64,000 nucleotides of DNA from an uncultured Lentisphaeraceae bacterium (GCA_949282555.1 CASDPK010000003.1:6865-70864), one strand, 5' to 3'; positions 16,677-58,870 are shown, counted from the stretch's first letter. Translations and numbers: made by a program. Notes: generated from the sequence alone by a model not told the origin.

Positions 16677-17084
16677 ATGCGTCACAAACGCCTCGCCAAA
16701 AAGTTCGGCCGCAGCCCTGAGCACCGCGAACAGCTCATGCGGATGCTCTGCGCCGCGCTCATCATCAACGATCGCATCGTCACCACCCTCAAGAAGGCCA
16801 AGCAGGCCCGCAAGGATGCCGAGAAGCTCGTCACCCTCGCCCGCAAGGGCACGCTTGCGGCCCGCCGTCTCGCCGCTGCCCGTCTGCGCAGCCCCGAGGC
16901 CGTGAAGAAGCTCTTCGACACGGTGGTGAAGCAGCAGGAAGGCCGCAATGGCGGCTACACCCGCATCACCAAGACCGGCGCCCGCCGTGGCGACGCCACC
17001 GAGATGTGCGTCCTCGAGTGGGTGGTCGCTGAGACCGCTCCTGCCGCTGAGCAGCCCGCCGCTCCCGCCGAAGCCGCCAACTAA
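16677..17084 (+). CDS. rplQ: 50S ribosomal protein L17
   Basis: ATG at 16677. Translation MRHKRLAKKFGRSPEHREQLMR... matches L17, with a short Ala/Pro-rich C-terminal tail. Confidence 0.92.
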   Translation: MRHKRLAKKFGRSPEHREQLMRMLCAALIINDRIVTTLKKAKQARKDAEKLVTLARKGTLAARRLAAARLRSPEAVKKLFDTVVKQQEGRNGGYTRITKTGARRGDATEMCVLEWVVAETAPAAEQPAAPAEAAN

Positions 17085-17106
17085 GATCGGTTTCCGGAAT
17101 GTAAAA

Positions 17107-17137
17107 GCCCCGCAGGGATTCCTGCGGGGCTTTTTTT
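17107..17137 (+). terminator. Intrinsic terminator ending the alpha operon (possibly bidirectional)
   Basis: GCCCCGCAGG-gatt-CCTGCGGGGC hairpin followed by TTTTTTT. Confidence 0.85.
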
Positions 17138-17284
17138 GTCGTTGTTCCACACCCTTTCATCAATGCCGCATACGGCTTGCTTTGCCGACATTCTCTCCCA
17201 ATGTGGGGCGTATGAAGGGGGAAAAAGAGCCCCATGGCGCGCATGGGACTGAGGGGAATCCGATGGATGCCGCGCGTGGGCCGT

Positions 17285-20761: not shown

Positions 20762-21385
20762 TCACGCCACCTTGCGGCGAAGCGCCAGCCCAGCCACTCC
20801 CAGCGCCAGCAACGCCAACGCCGTCGGCTCGGGAACAGTAACTACGCTTCCCTTATAGGCACCCGCAGCGATGATCATATCTTCGGCAGTAATGTCTGTT
20901 TCACTGGTAATAAAATTGAGGCCATTGACTGTTGAGTCCCCTGTTTTGATTACGTTGAACCACTCTTTTCCATCGATGTAAACCGTTACGGTTACATTTT
21001 GCGAACCCTCCGTTAACTTCTCGTATGTTATTGCTACTGTATGCTTCGCTCCTGAGATTGTCGTCTCATTGGCGATGTTATCCGTGTACTGACCTTTTGT
21101 TCCTAGCGCGTAAGTACCATCTTCTGCCCCAGCCTTGACATAAAGAATGGTATTTCCGCCGGACCACTGGGCTGCCTTAAAGATTGCCGCATAGGACTCT
21201 CCCGCAGTCGAGAAGTCCAAGTTGACAATCAACGAAGTTGTTCCAATACCCGTTCCTTGCCCCTGATTTGCCCAAATCGTTTTACTTTCATCGGGGGTTT
21301 CAGGATTATACGTCCAATCATAAGTAATCGCGCTGGCCACGCCGGCCACGCAAAGGGCCGCAAGGGCCATCATCAGTTTCTTCAT
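20762..21385 (-). CDS. PEP-CTERM sorting-domain protein (secreted, unknown function)
   Basis: Signal peptide MKKLMMALAALCVAGVASA. C-terminal VPEPTALALLALGVAGLALRRKVA has the PEP motif, a TM helix and a basic tail. RBS aggag with 9-nt spacer. Confidence 0.8.
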   Translation of the reverse strand: MKKLMMALAALCVAGVASAITYDWTYNPETPDESKTIWANQGQGTGIGTTSLIVNLDFSTAGESYAAIFKAAQWSGGNTILYVKAGAEDGTYALGTKGQYTDNIANETTISGAKHTVAITYEKLTEGSQNVTVTVYIDGKEWFNVIKTGDSTVNGLNFITSETDITAEDMIIAAGAYKGSVVTVPEPTALALLALGVAGLALRRKVA

Positions 21386-21488
21386 CTCCATCATCTCCTG
21401 TTCAAGCACGTTCCGTGCGGTTGAAACTTTCAAGGCGAGGGAACGGCCCTCAAAAGAACCCAAAAGCAACGTCACAATATCATACCTG

Positions 21489-21496
21489 CCCCCCCC
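21489..21496. repeat. C8 homopolymer in the AT-rich upstream region of the PEP-CTERM gene
   Basis: The cccccccc run is adjacent to TTGAC on the gene strand. Confidence 0.9.
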
Positions 21497-21740: not shown

Positions 21741-21751
21741 GGGGGGGGGGG
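21741..21751. repeat. G11 homopolymer tract
   Basis: ggggggggggg lies immediately beyond the terminator of the giant gene. Confidence 0.9.
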
Positions 21752-32075: not shown

Positions 32076-32651
32076 TCAGCCGTTTTGGTGACGCTTGGCG
32101 GCGGCGAGGTTCTTCTCGTATTCGGACTTACAGCTGACGCAACGGATGGCGAAGGGCGCCGCCCGCAGACGATCGCGCGGGATGAGGCATCCGCACACCT
32201 GGCAGATGCCGTAAGTCTTGTTGTCGATGGCACGCAGGGCATCATCGATGGCGTGGAGGCGGGTGTGCTGTTCATCGGCACGGCTGAGATCCGCCGAGCG
32301 CGCGAAGGCGTTGGAACCATCCTCTTCCACGTTCTCCTCGTCCGCGCGGCGGAGCGCATCGGCGCGCGTGGCGCGGAGCTGGCGCAGGATGGCTTCCCGG
32401 TCGGCGAGGAGGCGTTTGCGGAAGTCCGCGAGGTCGGCGTCGCTGAAATGTTGCTCGCCATTTTTGGCGAAGCGGGGGCGCGGGCCGGAACTCTTTTTCC
32501 CAGAGGGACGCACCAAGTCGTACTTGGGGCGGATTGGCAAGGCAGATTCACCGGAAGCGGGAGTGCCTTTTTGCGGGGCAATTTCTTTGACCACCGGCGT
32601 TTGGGTGGCTTCTTGGGGGGCAACTTTCCCCAAGGGAGTTTTTTCAGTTAT
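32076..32651 (-). CDS. DksA/TraR-family C4 zinc-finger segment, in the -1 frame relative to the upstream KA-rich ORF
   Basis: C-terminal CQVCGCLIPRDRLRAAPFAIRCVSC, preceded by a coiled-coil (FRKRLLADREAILRQLR). No ATG or Shine-Dalgarno-supported start lies downstream of the A10 run. Confidence 0.55.
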   Translation of the reverse strand: MTEKTPLGKVAPQEATQTPVVKEIAPQKGTPASGESALPIRPKYDLVRPSGKKSSGPRPRFAKNGEQHFSDADLADFRKRLLADREAILRQLRATRADALRRADEENVEEDGSNAFARSADLSRADEQHTRLHAIDDALRAIDNKTYGICQVCGCLIPRDRLRAAPFAIRCVSCKSEYEKNLAAAKRHQNG

Positions 32652-33175
32652 TTTTTTTTTGAGGGCGTCTTTGCCTTGGGGGCCGCAGGCTTCTTTGCGG
32701 GGGCCTTTTTGGCGACGGCGGCTTTGACGGCCTTGGCAGGGGCCTTCTTCACAGGCGTGACCTTGGCCACGGCCTTTGCGGGCGCCTTCTTCGCTGCGGG
32801 GGCTTTGGCGACGGCGGCTTTGACGGCCTTGGCAGGGGCCTTCTTCACAGGCGTGGCCTTGGCCACGACCTTTGCGGGCGCCTTCTTCGCTGCGGGGGCT
32901 TTGGCGACCTTTGCAGGCGTCGTCTTCGCGGGCGTCTTCTTGGCGACGGCGGCCTTGACGGCCTTGACCGGAGTCTTCTTCGCAGGCGTGGCCTTGGCGG
33001 TAGCCTTGGTCGGAGCCTTCTTGGCGACAGCGGCCTTGACGGCCTTGGTGGGCGTCTTCTTCGCGGGGGTGACCTTGGTTACGGTCTTTGCGGGGGCCTT
33101 TTTGGCAGGCGTAGCCTTGGCCTTTTTCTTTGGGGCCGGTTGCTTTGCGGCCGGGGATTTTTTGGGAGTTGCCAT
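32648..33175 (-). CDS. Histone H1-like Lys/Ala-rich repeat protein (AlgP/Hc1-like), ending in an A10 tract plus TAA
   Basis: MATPKKSPAAKQPAPKKKAKATPAKKAPAK... with tandem AKKAPAK / KAVKAAVAKK repeats. The 3' end is TCA AAA AAA AAA TAA. Confidence 0.65.
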   Translation of the reverse strand: MATPKKSPAAKQPAPKKKAKATPAKKAPAKTVTKVTPAKKTPTKAVKAAVAKKAPTKATAKATPAKKTPVKAVKAAVAKKTPAKTTPAKVAKAPAAKKAPAKVVAKATPVKKAPAKAVKAAVAKAPAAKKAPAKAVAKVTPVKKAPAKAVKAAVAKKAPAKKPAAPKAKTPSKKK

Positions 33176-34819: not shown

Positions 34820-35005
34820 AGAGAGGCGTGGAGGCGTGGTTTCCTCACGGGGACTTTGTGGTCTGCGGCCGGCGGGGGGGGCTTTCGGGCACCCGCCTCA
34901 CACGCCGGCGAACCCACCCTTCCAACGCCCAGACCTCCACACTCCCAAACCTTCACGCTTCCAAATTTCCTTTTCACATCACACGAAAGGTAAGGTGCAG
35001 AACCC

Positions 35006-49957: not shown

Positions 49958-51247
49958 TCAAAGCCCAGCTTCAAGCCGTTGCTTCACGGTGGCAAGATCG
50001 GTTTCGGCCGGCGCGGCCCCCGAGCGCACGGCGGCCTCGGCCACCGCGTAGGAGACGACGGCGTACAGACGGCGGTCAAACGCCTTGGGAATGATGTACT
50101 GCGGGCCAAACGTCAGGTTCTCTTCGGGATACAACGCCTGCACATCGGCGGGGACGGGCTCACGCGCCAGCAAGGCCAACGCATTGGAAGCCGCCACCTT
50201 CATCTCGGTGTTGATCGTGCGGGCGCGCACATCCAACGCCCCGCGGAAGAGGAAGGGGAAGCCGAGCACATTGTTGATTTGGTTCGGATGATCCGAACGC
50301 CCCGTGGCCATGACGTAGGGCCGCCCGGCCAACGCCTCCGCGACGACGGCGGGCTCAATCTCCGGGTCGGGGTTGGCCATCGCGAAGATGGCGGGGAAAT
50401 CGGCCATCGCCTTGACGTCTTCGCCGGTGAGCACGCCTGCGGCCGAAACGCCAATGAACACGTGCGCCCCCACAAGGGCCTCCTTCAACGTGCGGCACTC
50501 CGTCGCGACGGCATGGCGGCGCTTGTGCTCCGTGAGATCGGTGCGGTCGGCATGGATCACACCCTTGGAGTCGCACATCATGAGGTCACGCACGCCGGCC
50601 GCCTTGCACATGTCGGCAATGCGGATTCCGGCCGCGCCTGCGCCGTTGATCACCACACGCACGTCGGCCAACGCACGGCCGGTGAGGTGGGCGTAGTTGA
50701 TCAGCCCCGCCACGGTGATGACGGCGGTTCCCCACTGGTCATCGTGGAAAACCGGAATGTCCAACTCCTCGTCCAGCACGCGCTCAATCTCAAAGCACGC
50801 CGGGGCGGCGATATCTTCGAGGTTGATGCCGCCATACATCGGCGCGATGGCGCGCACGGCCTCAATCACACGCTGCGGATCGGTTTTGCCCGTATCCTTG
50901 CCGTCCTTCCGGCAGTGCGCCAACGGCACCGGCCAAGCATCCACCCCGGCAAAGCTCTTGAAGAGCGCCGCTTTCCCTTCCATCACGGGGATGGAAGCCG
51001 CGGCCCCCAAATCCCCCAAACCCAAAATCGCCGTGCCATCGGAGACAACGGCCACCAGATTGCGCTTGCTGGTCAGGTCAAAGACGGTTTCAGGCTTCGT
51101 GGCAATTTCCTTTACGGCCTGCGCCACGCCCGGCGTATAGGCCAAGCAAAGATCCTTCTGCGTCGCAAGCGGCTTGGACAATGCCACACGCACCTTGCCC
51201 CCGTCATGAAACGCAAACACCTCTTCCTTCGTGATCTGAACGGCCAT
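49958..51247 (-). CDS. NAD(P)-dependent malic enzyme
   Basis: MAVQITKEEVFAFHDGGK... with malic-enzyme NAD-binding motifs. RBS gaggaaagga lies upstream of ATG 51247. Confidence 0.9.
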   Translation of the reverse strand: MAVQITKEEVFAFHDGGKVRVALSKPLATQKDLCLAYTPGVAQAVKEIATKPETVFDLTSKRNLVAVVSDGTAILGLGDLGAAASIPVMEGKAALFKSFAGVDAWPVPLAHCRKDGKDTGKTDPQRVIEAVRAIAPMYGGINLEDIAAPACFEIERVLDEELDIPVFHDDQWGTAVITVAGLINYAHLTGRALADVRVVINGAGAAGIRIADMCKAAGVRDLMMCDSKGVIHADRTDLTEHKRRHAVATECRTLKEALVGAHVFIGVSAAGVLTGEDVKAMADFPAIFAMANPDPEIEPAVVAEALAGRPYVMATGRSDHPNQINNVLGFPFLFRGALDVRARTINTEMKVAASNALALLAREPVPADVQALYPEENLTFGPQYIIPKAFDRRLYAVVSYAVAEAAVRSGAAPAETDLATVKQRLEAGL

Positions 51248-51304
51248 GGCCAAAATCCTTTCCTCTAGGCGGAACTTGAAGCAAAACAAGTCCGCACAGT
51301 ATAG

Positions 51305-51437
51305 CATATTGAGGGGATGGTAACCTTGGTCGTTTTGGGGCGAAAGGTTGGGTGAATCGTTCACAACGGTGTTGCGCACTTCTAGAGCCGAAGCGAAGGA
51401 AGAGAAAAGATGGACGGGCTTTGGGCAAAGCAACGCG
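51305..51437. repeat. Direct repeat copy 1 (~133 bp), 5' of the malic enzyme gene
   Basis: Near-identical (2 substitutions, 1 indel) to 52163..52296. Contains the palindrome GTGAATCGTTCAC. Confidence 0.9.
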
Positions 51438-51441
51438 TTGT

Positions 51442-52095
51442 TCACTTAAACCATCGACAAAGGGTGTGACACGTGCGATAACGGGGATCAACCGCGGGGG
51501 CATTGTGTTTGACACGTATCTCAAATTCCGCTCGCTTGATGATTGCCACATCTTCCTTCGTTATGGAGTGAAAGAAAACAAACATCACATTTGCATGCCC
51601 ATCATAGAGCGCGGAGCGTATCAGGCAGAGATCCCATCGATTGCTAGGTTGCCATGTGCAATAGGAGGCAAACTCACCTTTGTAATTCTTCAAGTATGAG
51701 AGCAAATCGTATTCGCGTCGGATATGAAATAACTTATTGTCTACACAAACTCTGCGATCCGTGAGAAGATAGGTCGTGTTCCTCAGGTTGAGAAAGTTGA
51801 AAAAGGAACATATAAGGCAAAAGCCTCCCAATCCTGTCACAAGGATTGCCATAGAGCGAATTTGGATGGCGAACGTCAATTCAAAACAGGCGACCCAAAT
51901 CAGCGCGAGGCCAATGGTCGGGAAAAGCAACATACTCCATCGCAGATACACCTTATGGGGGCGCCCCTGCCAATACACGACCTCGTCCGAGGCGATTGCG
52001 ACCTCCTTCCAAGGCTCTCCGCGAGATGTCCGTATGAAATGCTTAAATAGCTTTAACCGGGGAGACCAAGACCATTCGCATCGATGCAGCGTCAT
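51442..52095 (-). CDS. Bacterial PH-domain (bPH_2/YdbS-like) membrane protein
   Basis: Two TM helices followed by a PH-like domain with YLLTDRRV. The gene is low-GC. Confidence 0.6.
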   Translation of the reverse strand: MTLHRCEWSWSPRLKLFKHFIRTSRGEPWKEVAIASDEVVYWQGRPHKVYLRWSMLLFPTIGLALIWVACFELTFAIQIRSMAILVTGLGGFCLICSFFNFLNLRNTTYLLTDRRVCVDNKLFHIRREYDLLSYLKNYKGEFASYCTWQPSNRWDLCLIRSALYDGHANVMFVFFHSITKEDVAIIKRAEFEIRVKHNAPAVDPRYRTCHTLCRWFK

Positions 52096-52162
52096 AACAC
52101 CTCCTATCTAGTACAACCTCTTTCCATCGTGATACGAAGCAAAACAATTTCATACGATATCA

Positions 52163-52296
52163 CATATTGAGGGGATGGTAACTTTGGTCGTTTTTGGGGC
52201 GAAAGGTTGGGTGAATCGTTCACAACGGTGTTGCGCACTTCTAGAGCCGAAGCGAAGGAAGAGAAAAGATGGACGGGCTTTGGGCAAAGTAACGCG
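52163..52296. repeat. Direct repeat copy 2 (~134 bp), 5' of the bPH_2 gene
   Basis: See copy 1. Confidence 0.9.
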
Positions 52297-52306
52297 GGAC
52301 GGCTCT

Positions 52307-53482
52307 CTACAACTTTGGCCTTGTCGCGAAATCGCTGTAGGGTTCATAGTCGTTAACCGTAAAAGCGATGCTATAGCATTTGCGCCCTAGGTCATCTATT
52401 GTGTGTTCATTGGTGATTTTGACGGAGTCAATGCCGTAAATGTTAAGGTCCTCCATCGTAACGAGGGTGCCTTCGGCTTTACGAAGTACTTGACGCAAAA
52501 GCCATTTCCCAAGTGCGGCATTGGGGGCGCTCATTAGTGCCTTGGAGCCCTCTTGGCAAACTTTTGCTGTAAGGACTTCGCCGTGAGGAAGGCGAAGAGC
52601 GAAGTGTTCATCGCGTGGCGGAAAGAAGCCTGGGTGGAGTGTATGGATTCGTTTGGGAATGGGAATATAAACCTCGTTAAAGTCACGCGGGCGTCCCTCT
52701 GCGTTCCATTGGTTAAGCCCACTTCGTTCCGGAACACTAGGTAACTTTCCGCGTGTGCTATAAAGTGGGAGAATGACATAGTCTTTGGGAAGAGTTTTTA
52801 TAGGGAGATAAGGCGATGATTTTTCCCCTCTGAGAACAGCAAGCAACAGTCGTAACGGGTCTTCAAGGATGTTTACCGGAATTGGGACTGTTCCAACTGT
52901 TGGGACGTGGAACCGTTTTAAGAGAACGCTCTTACTTCGATTGAAGTTGTACTCATTTTTACCGTCATCAAAAGTAATCCCCGCAGTATTCGTCTTTGTG
53001 ATACAAAGTGCGTTGAGGTCTATTGGTTCATAAGGAACATTAAAAAGAAGTAAACCTCCTTCGGTGCGCCCAACGATATGATAAATACTTTGAGTGGTTT
53101 TATAAATGTTGTCTGCGGCTTGAATGCGCGTATTGCGAAAGGAACCAAGTTTTCGGGCGAGATCAAGACCGTCGAGTGGGTCAAGTTCAGCCTTGAGCTT
53201 ATTGAATTCTGCCACCTTTTCAAAAGAGGGGGCCGCCTTGAGAAGAAAGGTTTTGATGCCAACGCCTAGTGAGCCGATCCTTGCGTCATAGGCTGTACAT
53301 GATCGGGCATCGTTGATGGCTTGGAAGAATGTACAGAAGAGATTTTCCGTGAGGCGATAGTCAAGGAAGGGCTGTGAACTTTCCGAAAAGAGTTTAGAAA
53401 GGCTGGCCAGTGCACGAAGTGCATCGAAATAGGGTGCATTCGTTTGCCAAGTGGAAAGAAACTCCTGTGCGGATGGTTTCAC
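52307..53482 (-). CDS. Putative type II restriction endonuclease (cognate of the adjacent m5C MTase)
   Basis: 391-aa low-GC ORF. GTG start overlaps the MTase stop (GTGA). No recognisable family motif. The call rests on position only. Confidence 0.4.
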   Translation of the reverse strand: MKPSAQEFLSTWQTNAPYFDALRALASLSKLFSESSQPFLDYRLTENLFCTFFQAINDARSCTAYDARIGSLGVGIKTFLLKAAPSFEKVAEFNKLKAELDPLDGLDLARKLGSFRNTRIQAADNIYKTTQSIYHIVGRTEGGLLLFNVPYEPIDLNALCITKTNTAGITFDDGKNEYNFNRSKSVLLKRFHVPTVGTVPIPVNILEDPLRLLLAVLRGEKSSPYLPIKTLPKDYVILPLYSTRGKLPSVPERSGLNQWNAEGRPRDFNEVYIPIPKRIHTLHPGFFPPRDEHFALRLPHGEVLTAKVCQEGSKALMSAPNAALGKWLLRQVLRKAEGTLVTMEDLNIYGIDSVKITNEHTIDDLGRKCYSIAFTVNDYEPYSDFATRPKL

Positions 53483-54702
53483 GATAGCTCCATCACTTTA
53501 AGCATTTCGGCACAGACTGCCTGAACGAGAGGAACAACCACGGAGTTCCCTGCTTGTTTGTATTTGGCGGATAGGGGAATAGTTTCTGGGAAGTCATAGT
53601 TCTTGGGAAAGCCTTGGAAGTTAAGGCATTCTTTAGGGGAAAGCTTGCGGATAAGGTTGTTCCGAATAATCAGCGGGACATTGTGCCCCCCGGTTCCCAT
53701 ATTTGCCGTAAGCGTTGGACAAACGTGGCTTTGATTTTTACGAACATACTGTCGTCGCCACTGATAAATGCTATTAGGATCGATTATCTCTTTCCGAAGT
53801 TCCTCGAAGTGTGACATCGCTTCCGTGTAAACAAGCCGCGGATCTTTAAGTTGGGCATCGATACAGTCATGAATGGTTCGTGTAAGTAGTTGTTTTTTAG
53901 GGAATTGAAACGTATTACAACGTGGAACTCGCATTGGATCAAAGCAGATGATAAAGAGCCGTTCACGGTTCTGGGGAACGTTCGCATACACCATTGCATT
54001 CATCACCTTGTGAAAGACGCAATAGCCCAGTTGGCGGAGTGTTCGGTGAATAACTTCGAACGTTTTACCTCTATTGTGGGAGGTAAGGTTCTTCACATTC
54101 TCCAAGAAGACAGCCTTTGGATGTTTGGTCTTGAGAATCTCAGCGATGTCATAAAACAGTGTCCCTCGCGTGTCATCAAACCCTTTTTGATAACCGGCAA
54201 TAGAAAAGGGTTGGCATGGAAATCCCCCGAAAAGGCAATCGAATCCTTCGGGGATTGCCGCCTTGGTCTCCGCGTGGGTAATATCACCATATGGTACCTC
54301 ACCGAAGTTATGGCAATAGGTCTTTTGTGCATTGATGTCAAACTCGGAGGAAAAAACACACCGCCCACCGAGTGCTTGTGCCGCCAAGCGAAAACCTCCG
54401 ATTCCCGCGAAAAGATCAACGAACATGAATCGATTTTCCGTCGGACGAAATGGCGCATCCTGCCGTTCAAAGAGACCTTCTTGGACGTTTATCTGATGTA
54501 ACGACTGAAAGTGTTTTTGGGGCAACTTTTCAATAGGTATATTTGAGGCTGTCGCTTTCTTTTCCAATGTGTTGGATTTTGAATCGGAAATCAAACAGCT
54601 ACGCAGTAATTTCAAGTCCCCATGCTCATTCTGTTGGGTAGAAACCGAATGCGTGTTTTTTTTGCCTTTTACGTGTGGCCTTTGACCTCCCGAAGAAGAC
54701 AT
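53479..54702 (-). CDS. DNA (cytosine-5)-methyltransferase
   Basis: Motif I FAGIGGF, motif IV GFPCQPFS, motif VI ENV and motif VIII QNRERLF. 92-aa N-terminal extension containing an A8 run. Confidence 0.88.
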   Translation of the reverse strand: MSSSGGQRPHVKGKKNTHSVSTQQNEHGDLKLLRSCLISDSKSNTLEKKATASNIPIEKLPQKHFQSLHQINVQEGLFERQDAPFRPTENRFMFVDLFAGIGGFRLAAQALGGRCVFSSEFDINAQKTYCHNFGEVPYGDITHAETKAAIPEGFDCLFGGFPCQPFSIAGYQKGFDDTRGTLFYDIAEILKTKHPKAVFLENVKNLTSHNRGKTFEVIHRTLRQLGYCVFHKVMNAMVYANVPQNRERLFIICFDPMRVPRCNTFQFPKKQLLTRTIHDCIDAQLKDPRLVYTEAMSHFEELRKEIIDPNSIYQWRRQYVRKNQSHVCPTLTANMGTGGHNVPLIIRNNLIRKLSPKECLNFQGFPKNYDFPETIPLSAKYKQAGNSVVVPLVQAVCAEMLKVMELS

Positions 54703-54734
54703 AAAGGAGCCCTCCTAAGTCATACCAGACGAGG

Positions 54735-54826
54735 CCTTAGGACGAGCCCATGACGATATAACAAAGGAGGGCATAGGCGCACCTATGCCACACCAATGCT
54801 TGCCCGTCATACAGAGTGTCCTAAGT
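54735..54826. repeat. Nested imperfect palindrome at the high-GC boundary of the R-M island
   Basis: ccttaggac...atgacg...GGCATAGG-cgca-CCTATGCC...cgtcat...gtcctaag. Confidence 0.6.
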
Positions 54827-55030
54827 TCCGTCTGAGCAAAACATTCGTGCGTTAGCACAAAACAATCTTGTGGTTTTCTCTCCACAAGTGAGGCAAAGCA
54901 TATCATAGTGATGACTCCGAAGGCAAAAGGCTTATTTGACGACTTGGGAGCCCCTTTTGTACAATAAGCGCGGAAGGGCGACGAGTAAGGTGCTTTGTCG
55001 TTCCTTGCGCCAGTGCCGTTTTGGAGTGTT

Positions 55031-57769: not shown

Positions 57770-58069
57770 TATAGGTGGATTCTCGTGGGGCGGCAAGTTG
57801 GCCAAAGGGCGCCGTGGCGATTGGGAAGGCGCACGAGGGCCGTTGAGGAGATACGGAGCCTTTCAAGGGAAGACATAGTGCATCTCCACCAAAGATACGG
57901 AGCCTTCCGCATGGAGGCGCAGGGAAGGCTACGCCCACGGAGGCAAGGAAAACACACAATCCATTCCCTCTTTGCCGTATTGAACGGTATACACTCTGTT
58001 GTGCGGATGGGGATAGGTGTGTGGTACACTTGAATCGTCGTTCGTTCGGTGAAATGGAAGGAGTGCCAA

Positions 58070-58342
58070 ATGTTTCCAAAATTGTTGTTTTTCGTTTGGC
58101 GAATGGTGATGGACTTCTTTTTTGGGGTAGGCCTTTTTGTCTTTCTCTCGCTCTTGGGGGTTCCGCTGTTCTCGCAGGAGACGATTCTTGTCAATGACTC
58201 ATTCCTGTATGTCCTATTCGAGGCAGGGGGATACGCGGCCTTCTATCTGCTATTTGGGACATGTTGCGGTATTTTCGTTTGTTGCTTGGACTGTTATATC
58301 CTAATTTCCAAGAAAGTCATCGAAGGGGAGTGCGGAAAATGA
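58070..58342 (+). CDS. Small hypothetical membrane protein (2 TM, Cys-rich tail)
   Basis: RBS ggaaggag lies 6 nt upstream. The gene is low-GC. Confidence 0.5.
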   Translation: MFPKLLFFVWRMVMDFFFGVGLFVFLSLLGVPLFSQETILVNDSFLYVLFEAGGYAAFYLLFGTCCGIFVCCLDCYILISKKVIEGECGK

Positions 58343-58692
58343 AGGCATGTTTCTTTCTTCTCGGTGTATTCTTTGGTTTTGGCGTGTCGATGTTGTTTTT
58401 GTCATATCAGTCTTCCCGTTTGCCAACCGATCGTGAGAACCTTGCCACAGCCATTCTTTTGAGAAAAGACATTGCCCATATCGAGGCAGCGCATTCCCAA
58501 AAGAATGCACGCGACTATGCCCAGTGGACGTCCGTTTATTTTTCCGGTCGGACGGCATGGGGAGAGGTTTTGCCGCCGGTCATTCAAGACGCTACCTTTA
58601 CCTTACGTGTTCGGAAGCAATTGTATGAAAACGTTTCGCTTATTCTTGAAGGGACTGGCAAACTTCCTCCGAAGGATAAAGTAAGCCCGTAA
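58339..58692 (+). CDS. Small hypothetical N-terminally anchored membrane protein
   Basis: ATGA overlap with the previous ORF. RBS gaaggggag lies upstream. The gene is low-GC. Confidence 0.5.
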   Translation: MKACFFLLGVFFGFGVSMLFLSYQSSRLPTDRENLATAILLRKDIAHIEAAHSQKNARDYAQWTSVYFSGRTAWGEVLPPVIQDATFTLRVRKQLYENVSLILEGTGKLPPKDKVSP

Positions 58693-58870
58693 GGTGTGAA
58701 CGATTCTCCTCACGGTTGATTCGCCTCGGGGGCTCCATGGGGGCACGAGGGACTTGAGGTTTCTTTTGAGATGCCGACCTCGAACCGTGGAACGGTGAAC
58801 CACTGTTTTGATGCGTTTGCCACGGAAGCCTTCGGTTGCTTCGTTGGTCGGGAGGGAGGGGTGTGCTATA

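Follow-up and report, generated by a model that had tools for sequence, protein, structure and literature searches.

A probable horizontally acquired Type II restriction-modification cassette with a slippage-prone adenine tract at a multi-allelic locus of an uncultured Lentisphaeraceae bacterium

Introduction

What does a segment of low guanine-cytosine (GC) content encode in the genome of an uncultured Lentisphaeraceae bacterium, how did it come to lie there, and can a run of eight adenines within it act as a genetic switch? These questions are raised by a locus in a stretch of 64,000 nucleotides (GCA_949282555.1 CASDPK010000003.1:6865-70864), which is called the window here and in which all positions are counted from the first letter. 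The initial annotation, made from the sequence alone, placed in this segment a Type II restriction-modification (R-M) pair, consisting of a C5-cytosine methyltransferase (MTase) gene and a possibly novel restriction endonuclease (REase) gene, here named M and R, and saw in the adenine run (A8) near the start of M a potential phase-variation switch. The best explanation of the whole, to which we assign a probability of roughly 0.8, is a horizontally acquired, strain-variable Type II R-M cassette with an REase that carries a B3-type reader domain and with a slippage-prone A8 tract.

Results

A Type II R-M pair in the low-GC segment

The gene M (407 aa; 53479..54702, minus strand) matches the Pfam model PF00145 with an E-value of 2e-87 over residues 92-401, which constitute the catalytic core, the NCBIfam model TIGR00675 with an E-value of 1e-87 and the PADLOC MTase_II model with an E-value of 4e-113. 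Its product is collinear with M.HhaI from end to end (E 6.8e-65), including the target-recognition region, which aligns weakly, and the motifs FAGIGG, PCQ, ENV, QNRER and GNSV can be read in the translation, confirming the Dcm-type C5 MTase with all canonical motifs that had been recognized from the sequence. The ATG of M at 54702 is preceded by an AGGAGG Shine-Dalgarno sequence. At the other end of the gene, the stop codon of M overlaps the GTG start of R (391 aa; 52307..53482, minus strand) as GTGA, as previously described, and GGAG lies 5 nt upstream of the GTG.

Full-length R matches the PADLOC REase_II model PDLC03479 with an E-value of 3e-104, and its C-terminus (52412..52738, minus strand) matches the Pfam model PF20731, RE_NgoFVII_C, with an E-value of 1e-11; a second Type II REase model of PADLOC, PDLC03530, covers only the C-terminal 100 residues. 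The statement of the initial annotation that this open reading frame (ORF) has no recognisable family signature therefore did not hold, and neither did the ORF prove to belong to a non-nuclease family. More than 4,300 homologues of R were found at 53-85% identity, some of which are named "NgoFVII family restriction endonuclease" by NCBI. A sequence comparison with the chains of the PDB, made with R alone and with a profile of 38 sequences, gave no match. The suggestion of a novel nuclease survives in part: the family is large and the C-terminal domain is of a known B3-like type, but the N-terminal domain has neither a Pfam model nor a significant structural neighbour.

In all of the contexts examined, namely a copy in a related genome (contig L002), the contigs L030-L035 and the plasmids L036 and L037, a C5 MTase gene adjoins the R homologue. 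The two genes either follow each other as M and an overlapping R or are divergent with a small helix-turn-helix (HTH) controller, and a gene for the mismatch endonuclease Vsr is often present as well. NgoFVII likewise has a C5 MTase partner. An M with complete motifs stands next to a separate R, their linkage is kept in unrelated genomes, and both proteins match Type II R-M models. Given the REase profile match, the family of homologues and the C5 MTase adjoining in every context opened, the sequence-based reading of the segment as a Type II R-M cassette, the family of which is large and has been catalogued before, is well supported, in agreement with the pair proposed initially.

With regard to specificity, the match to M.HhaI might suggest GCGC as the target of M, which was rejected, since few C5 MTases are in the PDB and the target-recognition region aligns poorly. 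Scanning 60 kb for depleted palindromes and k-mers as a guide to the recognition site showed depletion of many palindromes. GCWGC and GGWCC were low, with observed/expected ratios of 0.56 and 0.55, respectively, and GCWGC is absent from the cassette, which did not reach significance when corrected for multiple testing. Decay of R, as suggested by "75-aa R fragments" in a protein cluster, was rejected as well, as the DNA contains an intact R and the fragments are a gene-calling artefact.

A multi-allelic locus with sharp junctions

The low-GC variable segment, delimited by blastn against the alleles L003, L006, L007 and L009, extends over ~3.6 kb (51353..54925) and has a GC content of 47.2%, compared to 61.7% for the remaining window. 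It is the lowest-GC region anywhere in the 64-kb window, and when GC was calculated over 400 nt at a time, values were 0.44-0.51 from ~51200 to 55000 and 0.62-0.67 on either side. The GC drop reported earlier is real, but the figures of 40-45% against 65% were slightly exaggerated (0.472 vs 0.617). All three ORFs of the segment (217, 391 and 407 aa) are on the minus strand, and the 217-aa ORF, encoded by the first 650 bp of the island, had been overlooked.

The locus lies between a malic-enzyme gene and a gene for an EIIA-like (EIIA/zinc-ribbon) protein. Its host bacterium is related to "Candidatus Spyradenecus", a lineage of Kiritimatiellia metagenome-assembled genomes from the gut. Among contigs encoding the identical EIIA-like protein, at least six arrangements were found at this position: a lipase gene with a 382-aa ORF (L003 and L011), the lipase gene alone (L006), the 217-aa ORF with the lipase gene (L007 and L012), the 217-aa ORF with R and M as in the window (L004, L005 and L010), a frameshifted 217-aa ORF with R and M (L008), and R and M without the 217-aa ORF (L009). 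In blastn comparisons with the lipase alleles, the shared flanks stop at 51352 and restart at 54926, and the junctions are sharp. The alternative cargo is a GDSL lipase with or without the 382-aa ORF, for which there is no Pfam or PADLOC match (L003 5804-7895; L006; L007), and the lipase alleles are also below the genome GC, at 0.51-0.54.

A copy of the leader, M and R that is 81% identical to that of the window was found at another locus of a related genome, in contig L002. The upstream end of the L002 cassette corresponds to the end of the window cassette within 3 nt, and because the ends coincide so closely in another context, the leader, M and R appear to move as one block. Adjoining the L002 cassette is a second R-M system (L002 2950-5330), which consists of a 510-aa C5 MTase and a split HinfI-like REase. 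The DNA at L002 5464-5647 is 85% identical to window positions 16950-17139, that is, to a chromosomal position different from that of the window cassette.

In contig L001 (1-6723; ENA ERZ16268265 scaffold_9904), sequence 99.9% identical to window 53672..52012 spans R, the second copy of a direct repeat described below and the initial 84 nt of the 217-aa ORF, after which phage tail genes (tail tube, sheath-like and TAC) follow abruptly. The junction reflects either a prophage or rearrangement inside the 217-aa ORF of that strain or a chimeric assembly.

The 217-aa ORF (51442..52095, minus strand) is predicted to span the membrane twice, resembles PuhB/bPH weakly (NCBIfam PuhB, 3e-5) and gave no match to Pfam (to E 10) or PADLOC. 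A repeat search, blastn against all loci and the junction sequences placed it between two direct repeats. Copy 1 (160 bp; 51278..51437) is immediately upstream of the malic-enzyme gene, its first 75 bp being native and also present in the lipase alleles, and copy 2 (161 bp; 52136..52296) separates the 217-aa ORF from the 3ʹ end of R. The copies are 93% identical overall and 99% identical over the inner 105 nt. The alleles L009 and L006 have a single copy; the ORF is thus flanked by direct repeats of more than 30 bp, of which the empty site has one. The ORF occurs without the R-M genes in L007 and L012, is absent from L009 and L006 and is frameshifted in L008. Because L009 and L006 retain a single repeat copy, the sequence comparison suggests that the 217-aa membrane ORF is not part of the R-M pair but an independent module that would come and go by recombination between the 161-bp direct repeats.

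A second low-GC indel (57928-58853; GC 0.46-0.51) carries two small ORFs of 90 and 117 aa without a Pfam match. It is missing from the same-species contigs L009 and L012 and could be a small mobile two-gene module.

A conserved, structured 5ʹ leader

Upstream of M, the cassette begins with a leader (54703..54925) that was delineated by RNA folding, an inverted-repeat search and comparison with L002. For the 228 nt from the cassette edge to the M start, the minimum free energy was -89.7 kcal/mol in the sense orientation (z -5.5) and -73.1 kcal/mol in antisense. The L002 leader has the same fold architecture, with -92.5 kcal/mol and z -5.9. The predicted fold consists of two short hairpins, a ~125-nt imperfect hairpin (54719-54842) capped by GGCATAGG/CCTATGCC, and a closing helix, a long-range element in which the Shine-Dalgarno sequence AGGAGGG (54710-54716) is paired. 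U-rich runs follow three of the leader hairpins in a terminator-like manner, and perfect inverted repeats of 7-8 bp abound in the leader. Several nested inverted repeats are present, in keeping with the nested imperfect palindrome that had been noticed at this end (54.7-54.9 kb). Identity to the L002 leader is 93%, compared to 81% for the whole shared cassette, and a stretch of ~64 nt is perfectly conserved.

No credible match of the leader was found in Rfam, and the covariation test, for which two diverged leader copies only were available, gave 0 compensatory pairs. A small ORF in the leader was rejected, as its frame is disrupted by a 1-nt indel in the comparison with L002. The fold model suggests that the conserved leader sequesters the ribosome-binding site, and it may limit or insulate the translation and transcription of the operon.

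The A8 tract and the N-terminal extension of M

The N-terminal extension of M (residues 1-91; 54430..54702, minus strand) varies in length within the family. Its frame is kept in L002, with no stops, a conserved Shine-Dalgarno sequence and ATG, and L002 has no Met at position 93. The first 45 residues are ~38% identical to those of L002, as read from the alignment. Among the M partners of R homologues, which are 354-453 aa in length, the extension is absent or unrelated in the others; a homologue search with the extension alone found none, and Pfam to E 10 gave no match and no HTH or ribbon-helix-helix (RHH) domain. From these comparisons, the extension is coding but fast-evolving.

The A8 tract (54656..54663, minus strand) occupies M codons 13-16 and reads GGC AAA AAA AAC on the sense strand. 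Both the extension, given as 92 aa, and the corresponding T8 on the plus strand are as the initial annotation described them. In first-order Markov simulations with the same island size and composition, 46% contained an A/T run of at least 8. In L002, the closest orthologue (78% identical), the tract is interrupted, reading AAAAAGAAA, and the Lys-rich patch is kept (KGKKK vs KGKKN).

The 90%-identity cluster of M proteins holds members of 378 and 362 aa, and their contigs turned out to be A7 and A9 alleles. A7 was found in L038 (SRR31240083) and A9 in L039 (ERR10610642), with the surrounding sequence otherwise identical; the tract indel is the sole coding indel in L038 (5.3 kb) and in L039 (2.7 kb). 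A8 was found in the window and in 12 other distinct samples (three Logan and nine ENA assemblies), two of which share a run series with the A9 sample, and a scan of JGI metagenomes for a variable-length tract returned 0 hits. Tract length thus varies among natural samples at the assembly level, the comparison across samples yielding A7, A8 and A9. The occurrence of all three alleles in nature makes the A8 tract a genuine hotspot of slippage, with natural alleles in which the frame is shifted; as a programmed switch it is unproven.

The A7 and A9 alleles both truncate the M frame. The shifted frame of A7 ends at a TGA overlapping the in-frame TTG codon 30, and that of A9 ends four codons earlier, while R is intact in both, with its invariant residues unchanged. 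With R intact, a simple methylase-OFF state would be self-destructive, which leaves two options for these alleles. An N-terminally truncated, active M would be made by re-initiation, favoured in A7 by the overlap of the TGA with TTG30, or the loss of M translation would also silence the translationally coupled R.

In line with the first option, A7 and A9 may be nothing but ordinary slippage or assembly errors in a dispensable, disordered tail, with active M made from an internal start and no regulatory role for the tract; we put the chance of this just short of even. The poor conservation of the first 45 residues and the absence of the extension from other family members favour it, as do the L002 sequence, where KGKKK is encoded with AAAAAGAAA and the tract of the window would be a by-product of the Lys/Asn codons of KGKKN, the position of the A7 stop at TTG30, the high chance expectation of such a run and the origin of both variants in Logan assemblies. 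It has to accommodate, however, the fact that among 14 samples the site changed twice independently, once by loss and once by gain of a nucleotide, and that those contigs have no further coding indel, as well as the presence of A8 in other Logan assemblies of the same run series and the lack of a Shine-Dalgarno-like sequence at a usable distance before TTG30 or TTG46.

Taking up the second option, the tract could be a true contingency switch in which slippage to seven or nine adenines reversibly switches off the entire M-R operon, R being silenced via the GTGA coupling. The tract lies in the 5ʹ coding region shortly after a good Shine-Dalgarno sequence, A7 and A9 have independent origins in different haplotypes, each as the sole coding indel of its contig, R is intact in both, as expected if the OFF state is reversible and non-lethal, and homopolymer switches in MTase genes are established in Helicobacter pylori (PMC3936762). 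Nevertheless, we regard this as possible but rather unlikely. Eight adenines are at the low end for phase variation and not above chance, the tract is interrupted in L002, other M partners have no extension, and A8 is present in 12 of the 14 samples; R has its own GGAG, so that coupling need not be strict, the loss of M while R protein persists is normally lethal, and other short homopolymer indels are present in the same contigs. If the switch were real, subpopulations with and without restriction would result. Of the features that mark phase-variable loci, an intragenic tract and natural frame-shifting length variation are present here, and a tract longer than chance and kept in orthologues is not. 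The phase-variation proposal is accordingly upheld as far as natural A7 and A9 alleles beside A8 go, and weakened by the unexceptional run length, the interruption in L002 and the intact R of the frameshift alleles.

A more far-reaching version, in which a two-gene Type II operon is toggled by the A-tract and made safe by R-M coupling and by a leader that hides the Shine-Dalgarno sequence, with a nuclease domain of uncharacterised structure that is neither phospholipase D (PLD)-like nor of a recognisable PD-(D/E)XK subfamily and is joined to a B3 reader, seems to us doubtful; if true, thousands of entries named "NgoFVII family" or "PLD domain-containing" would be misnamed.

Distinctly unlikely is autoregulation, in which the M extension would be a DNA-binding region like those of M.SsoII, M.EcoRII and M.MspI and would have as its operators leader inverted repeats such as TCCTAAG-N16-CTTAGGA, which spans the Shine-Dalgarno sequence, or GGCATAGG-N4-CCTATGCC. 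It is established that there are C5 MTases whose N-terminal regions bind palindromes in front of their own genes (PMC3978073), the extension is coding, and the leader, with its many perfect 7-8-bp inverted repeats, is more conserved than the coding sequence. Against this, the extension has no HTH or RHH domain by Pfam to E 10 and no homologues, it diverges fast while the leader is conserved, and the excess stability of the sense strand (-89.7 vs -73.1 kcal/mol) points to an element acting at the RNA level rather than the DNA level. Were autoregulation true, tract slippage would remove autoregulation and not methylation.

Other homopolymers were seen elsewhere in the window. A G8 (sense) at 21489-21496 stands just after TTGACG, upstream of a PEP-CTERM protein gene (20762-21475, minus strand), and ~250 nt further upstream a C11 at 21741-21751 follows a terminator-like hairpin; as candidates, these two fit the classical picture of promoter-spacer phase variation better than A8 does. 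Near the 5ʹ end of a TMEM260-like gene, length polymorphisms of G4/G5 and T5/T6 were found among same-species contigs (61276 and 61369), alongside called gene lengths of 1112 and 1139 aa. A T10 at 32651-32660 and a G8 at 34874-34881 are further long homopolymers.

The two domains of R

The AlphaFold model of whole R reached a pLDDT (predicted local distance difference test) score of 86. In Foldseek, the C-terminus superposed on the B3 domain of R.NgoAVII bound to DNA (4rd5) with a probability of 1.0, a TM-score of 0.66 and a root-mean-square deviation of 3.3 Å. On the basis of the sequence and fold matches, this B3-like pseudobarrel most likely reads the recognition sequence.

The N-terminal domain, a presumed nuclease (residues 1-222; 52817..53482, minus strand), gave a pLDDT of 93 when modelled alone. 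Searched with Foldseek against the PDB, the model had no significant neighbour; its best weak matches were NaeI, HinP1I, Hjc, DpnI, SwaI and HincII, all PD-(D/E)XK enzymes, with non-significant E-values of 0.2-0.8. Pfam gave no match to E 10 on the first 235 residues of R, nor on the N-terminal domain of 46 diverse family members, and NCBIfam gave none on nine family representatives. The 237-aa PADLOC profile PDLC03446 (REase_II) matches the N-terminal domain alone with an E-value of 7.5e-24 and is the sole hint of a stand-alone N-domain enzyme. Short representatives that might represent such a free-standing enzyme were not used, being by appearance mostly truncated gene calls. A profile search with the N-terminal domain collected 543 clusters at 50% identity, nearly all of 360-415 aa and of the same architecture.

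Among members that are 29-54% identical, the residues E46, D66, K77, T78, K89, E92, N117, R119, H135, R139 and K184 are invariant. The predicted order of secondary structure is alpha-beta-beta-beta-alpha-beta; a helix carries E46, D66 opens a strand, and K77 (G75-I-K77) belongs to the strand that comes next. This placement corresponds to the geometry of an E...D...xK site, in which the middle acidic position is taken by Gly75. R is probably a fusion of a divergent PD-(D/E)XK-like nuclease, whose modelled site would comprise E46, D66 and K77, to a B3 reader.

NgoFVII, AspCNI, BfiI and NgoAVII cleave DNA via an N-terminal PLD domain with an HxK motif (PMC4081073, PMC4267654), and the site of the R N-terminal domain differs from this PLD/HxK site of the namesake enzymes of its family. 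That R is itself a metal-independent PLD-type nuclease like BfiI and NgoFVII is very improbable: the NCBI names of its homologues ("NgoFVII family" and "restriction endonuclease PLD domain-containing protein"), the domain order with the nuclease N-terminal and B3 C-terminal as in BfiI and NgoAVII (PMC4267654) and a full-length Foldseek alignment to 4rct over 320 columns would fit, but no HxK motif was found through all 391 residues, R and its homologues do not match the PLD models of Pfam to E 10, the top 50 Foldseek neighbours of the N-domain model include no PLD structure, and the match to PDLC03530 is confined to the C-terminal 100 residues. Sequence and model together suggest that the family name "NgoFVII" is misleading for R.

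Homologues of R also occur on the Caldicellulosiruptor plasmid pCALKR01 (L036), on a Priestia plasmid (L037) and in Pasteurella and Oenococcus phages (H9-H11), where they are annotated as "restriction endonuclease PLD domain-containing protein". Scanned with Pfam, the two plasmid copies gave the B3-like domain as the sole match, and the PLD name is probably a propagated misnomer.

Discussion

The leader, M and R (minus strand, ~52297-54925) would form a horizontally acquired Type II R-M cassette in a multi-allelic cargo locus, and the cassette would swap between strains as a discrete allele via homologous recombination in the conserved flanks. M would methylate cytosine at C5 and protect the host DNA. 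R, translated from the GTG overlapping the M stop, would act as a two-domain endonuclease whose N-terminal domain of ~220 residues would cut DNA.

Several observations weigh against parts of this account. The R-M cassette itself showed neither a mobility gene nor a target-site duplication nor a terminal inverted repeat. Both tract variants, A7 and A9, were read from lightly curated Logan assemblies, at the assembly level. In R, Gly75 takes the middle acidic position of the PD-(D/E)XK motif, and the catalytic assignment leans on non-significant fold matches (E >= 0.07) together with conserved acidic and basic residues. Finally, the L052 scaffold has a 123-bp deletion in M (L052 2845/2846; window 54033-54155), which takes out the region of the ENV motif and creates a TAA stop, with R intact. 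The deletion may be an artefact of assembly or mark an allele with a dead methylase and an intact endonuclease, and if it is real, R may be weakly active or expressed, or unexpressed.

Overall, the cassette is ordinary with a few interesting details and is new only as to the uncharacterised N-terminal domain of R. It does not overturn current understanding, as the mobility of R-M systems, REases with a B3 domain and the slippage of homopolymers within MTase genes are already known. The segment illustrates clearly how a defence cassette specific to certain strains occupies a multi-allelic cargo locus in an uncultured gut lineage. With the A7/A8/A9 series, it can be tested directly if a short homopolymer is able to modulate a Type II system of two genes and leave the host alive. 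Further, a large REase family bears the name of a PLD enzyme with a nuclease domain that is not PLD-like, and the catalytic domain of this family, having neither a Pfam model nor a solved structure, is a reasonable structural and biochemical target.

Allelic substitution and insertion with long target duplication have been described for R-M genes by Furuta et al. 2010 (PMC2853133). The locus resembles allelic substitution (PMC2853133) in that an R-M segment takes the place of unrelated genes of conspecific genomes, with sharp breakpoints and without mobility genes. It resembles long target duplication (PMC2853133) in that 161 bp upstream of the malic-enzyme gene are directly duplicated, with the difference that the repeats enclose the 217-aa ORF only and leave R and M outside.

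Homopolymer-dependent, phase-variable MTase genes are known from H. pylori and others (PMC3936762). M is like them in having a tract near its 5ʹ end and natural length differences that shift the frame. It differs in that its tract is short (8 nt) and not conserved in the orthologue, and in that M is part of a classical two-gene Type II operon, in which a methylase-OFF state should be lethal. With MTases of the M.HhaI type, M shares all ten motifs and collinearity including the target-recognition region, and is set apart from them by its 92-aa N-terminal extension.

With BfiI, NgoFVII, AspCNI and R.NgoAVII, R shares the order of an N-terminal nuclease and a C-terminal B3-like pseudobarrel; its C-terminus matches PF20731, which was built on NgoFVII, and superposes on the NgoAVII B3-DNA structure (TM 0.66). 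The difference lies in the N-terminal domain, which has no HxK(x)4D motif, PLD Pfam match or PLD fold neighbour. The N-protein ATPase partner of NgoAVII is absent from the gene contexts of the cassette.

EcoRII and UbaLAI are Type IIE enzymes that combine an N-terminal B3-like effector domain with a PD-(D/E)XK catalytic domain (PMC5766183). In these enzymes B3 is N-terminal, whereas it is C-terminal in R, and the catalytic domain of R has no detectable sequence similarity or significant fold similarity to EcoRII-C or MvaI. Like them, R joins a B3-like reader to a probable PD-(D/E)XK-type cutter and has a C5 MTase partner, often with Vsr in the R-homologous loci. The chemistry of R is likely closer to that of these B3-containing Type IIE enzymes, EcoRII and UbaLAI, and because of this likeness in reader, cutter and MTase partner, a two-site, tether-and-cut mechanism is, by analogy, possible for R.

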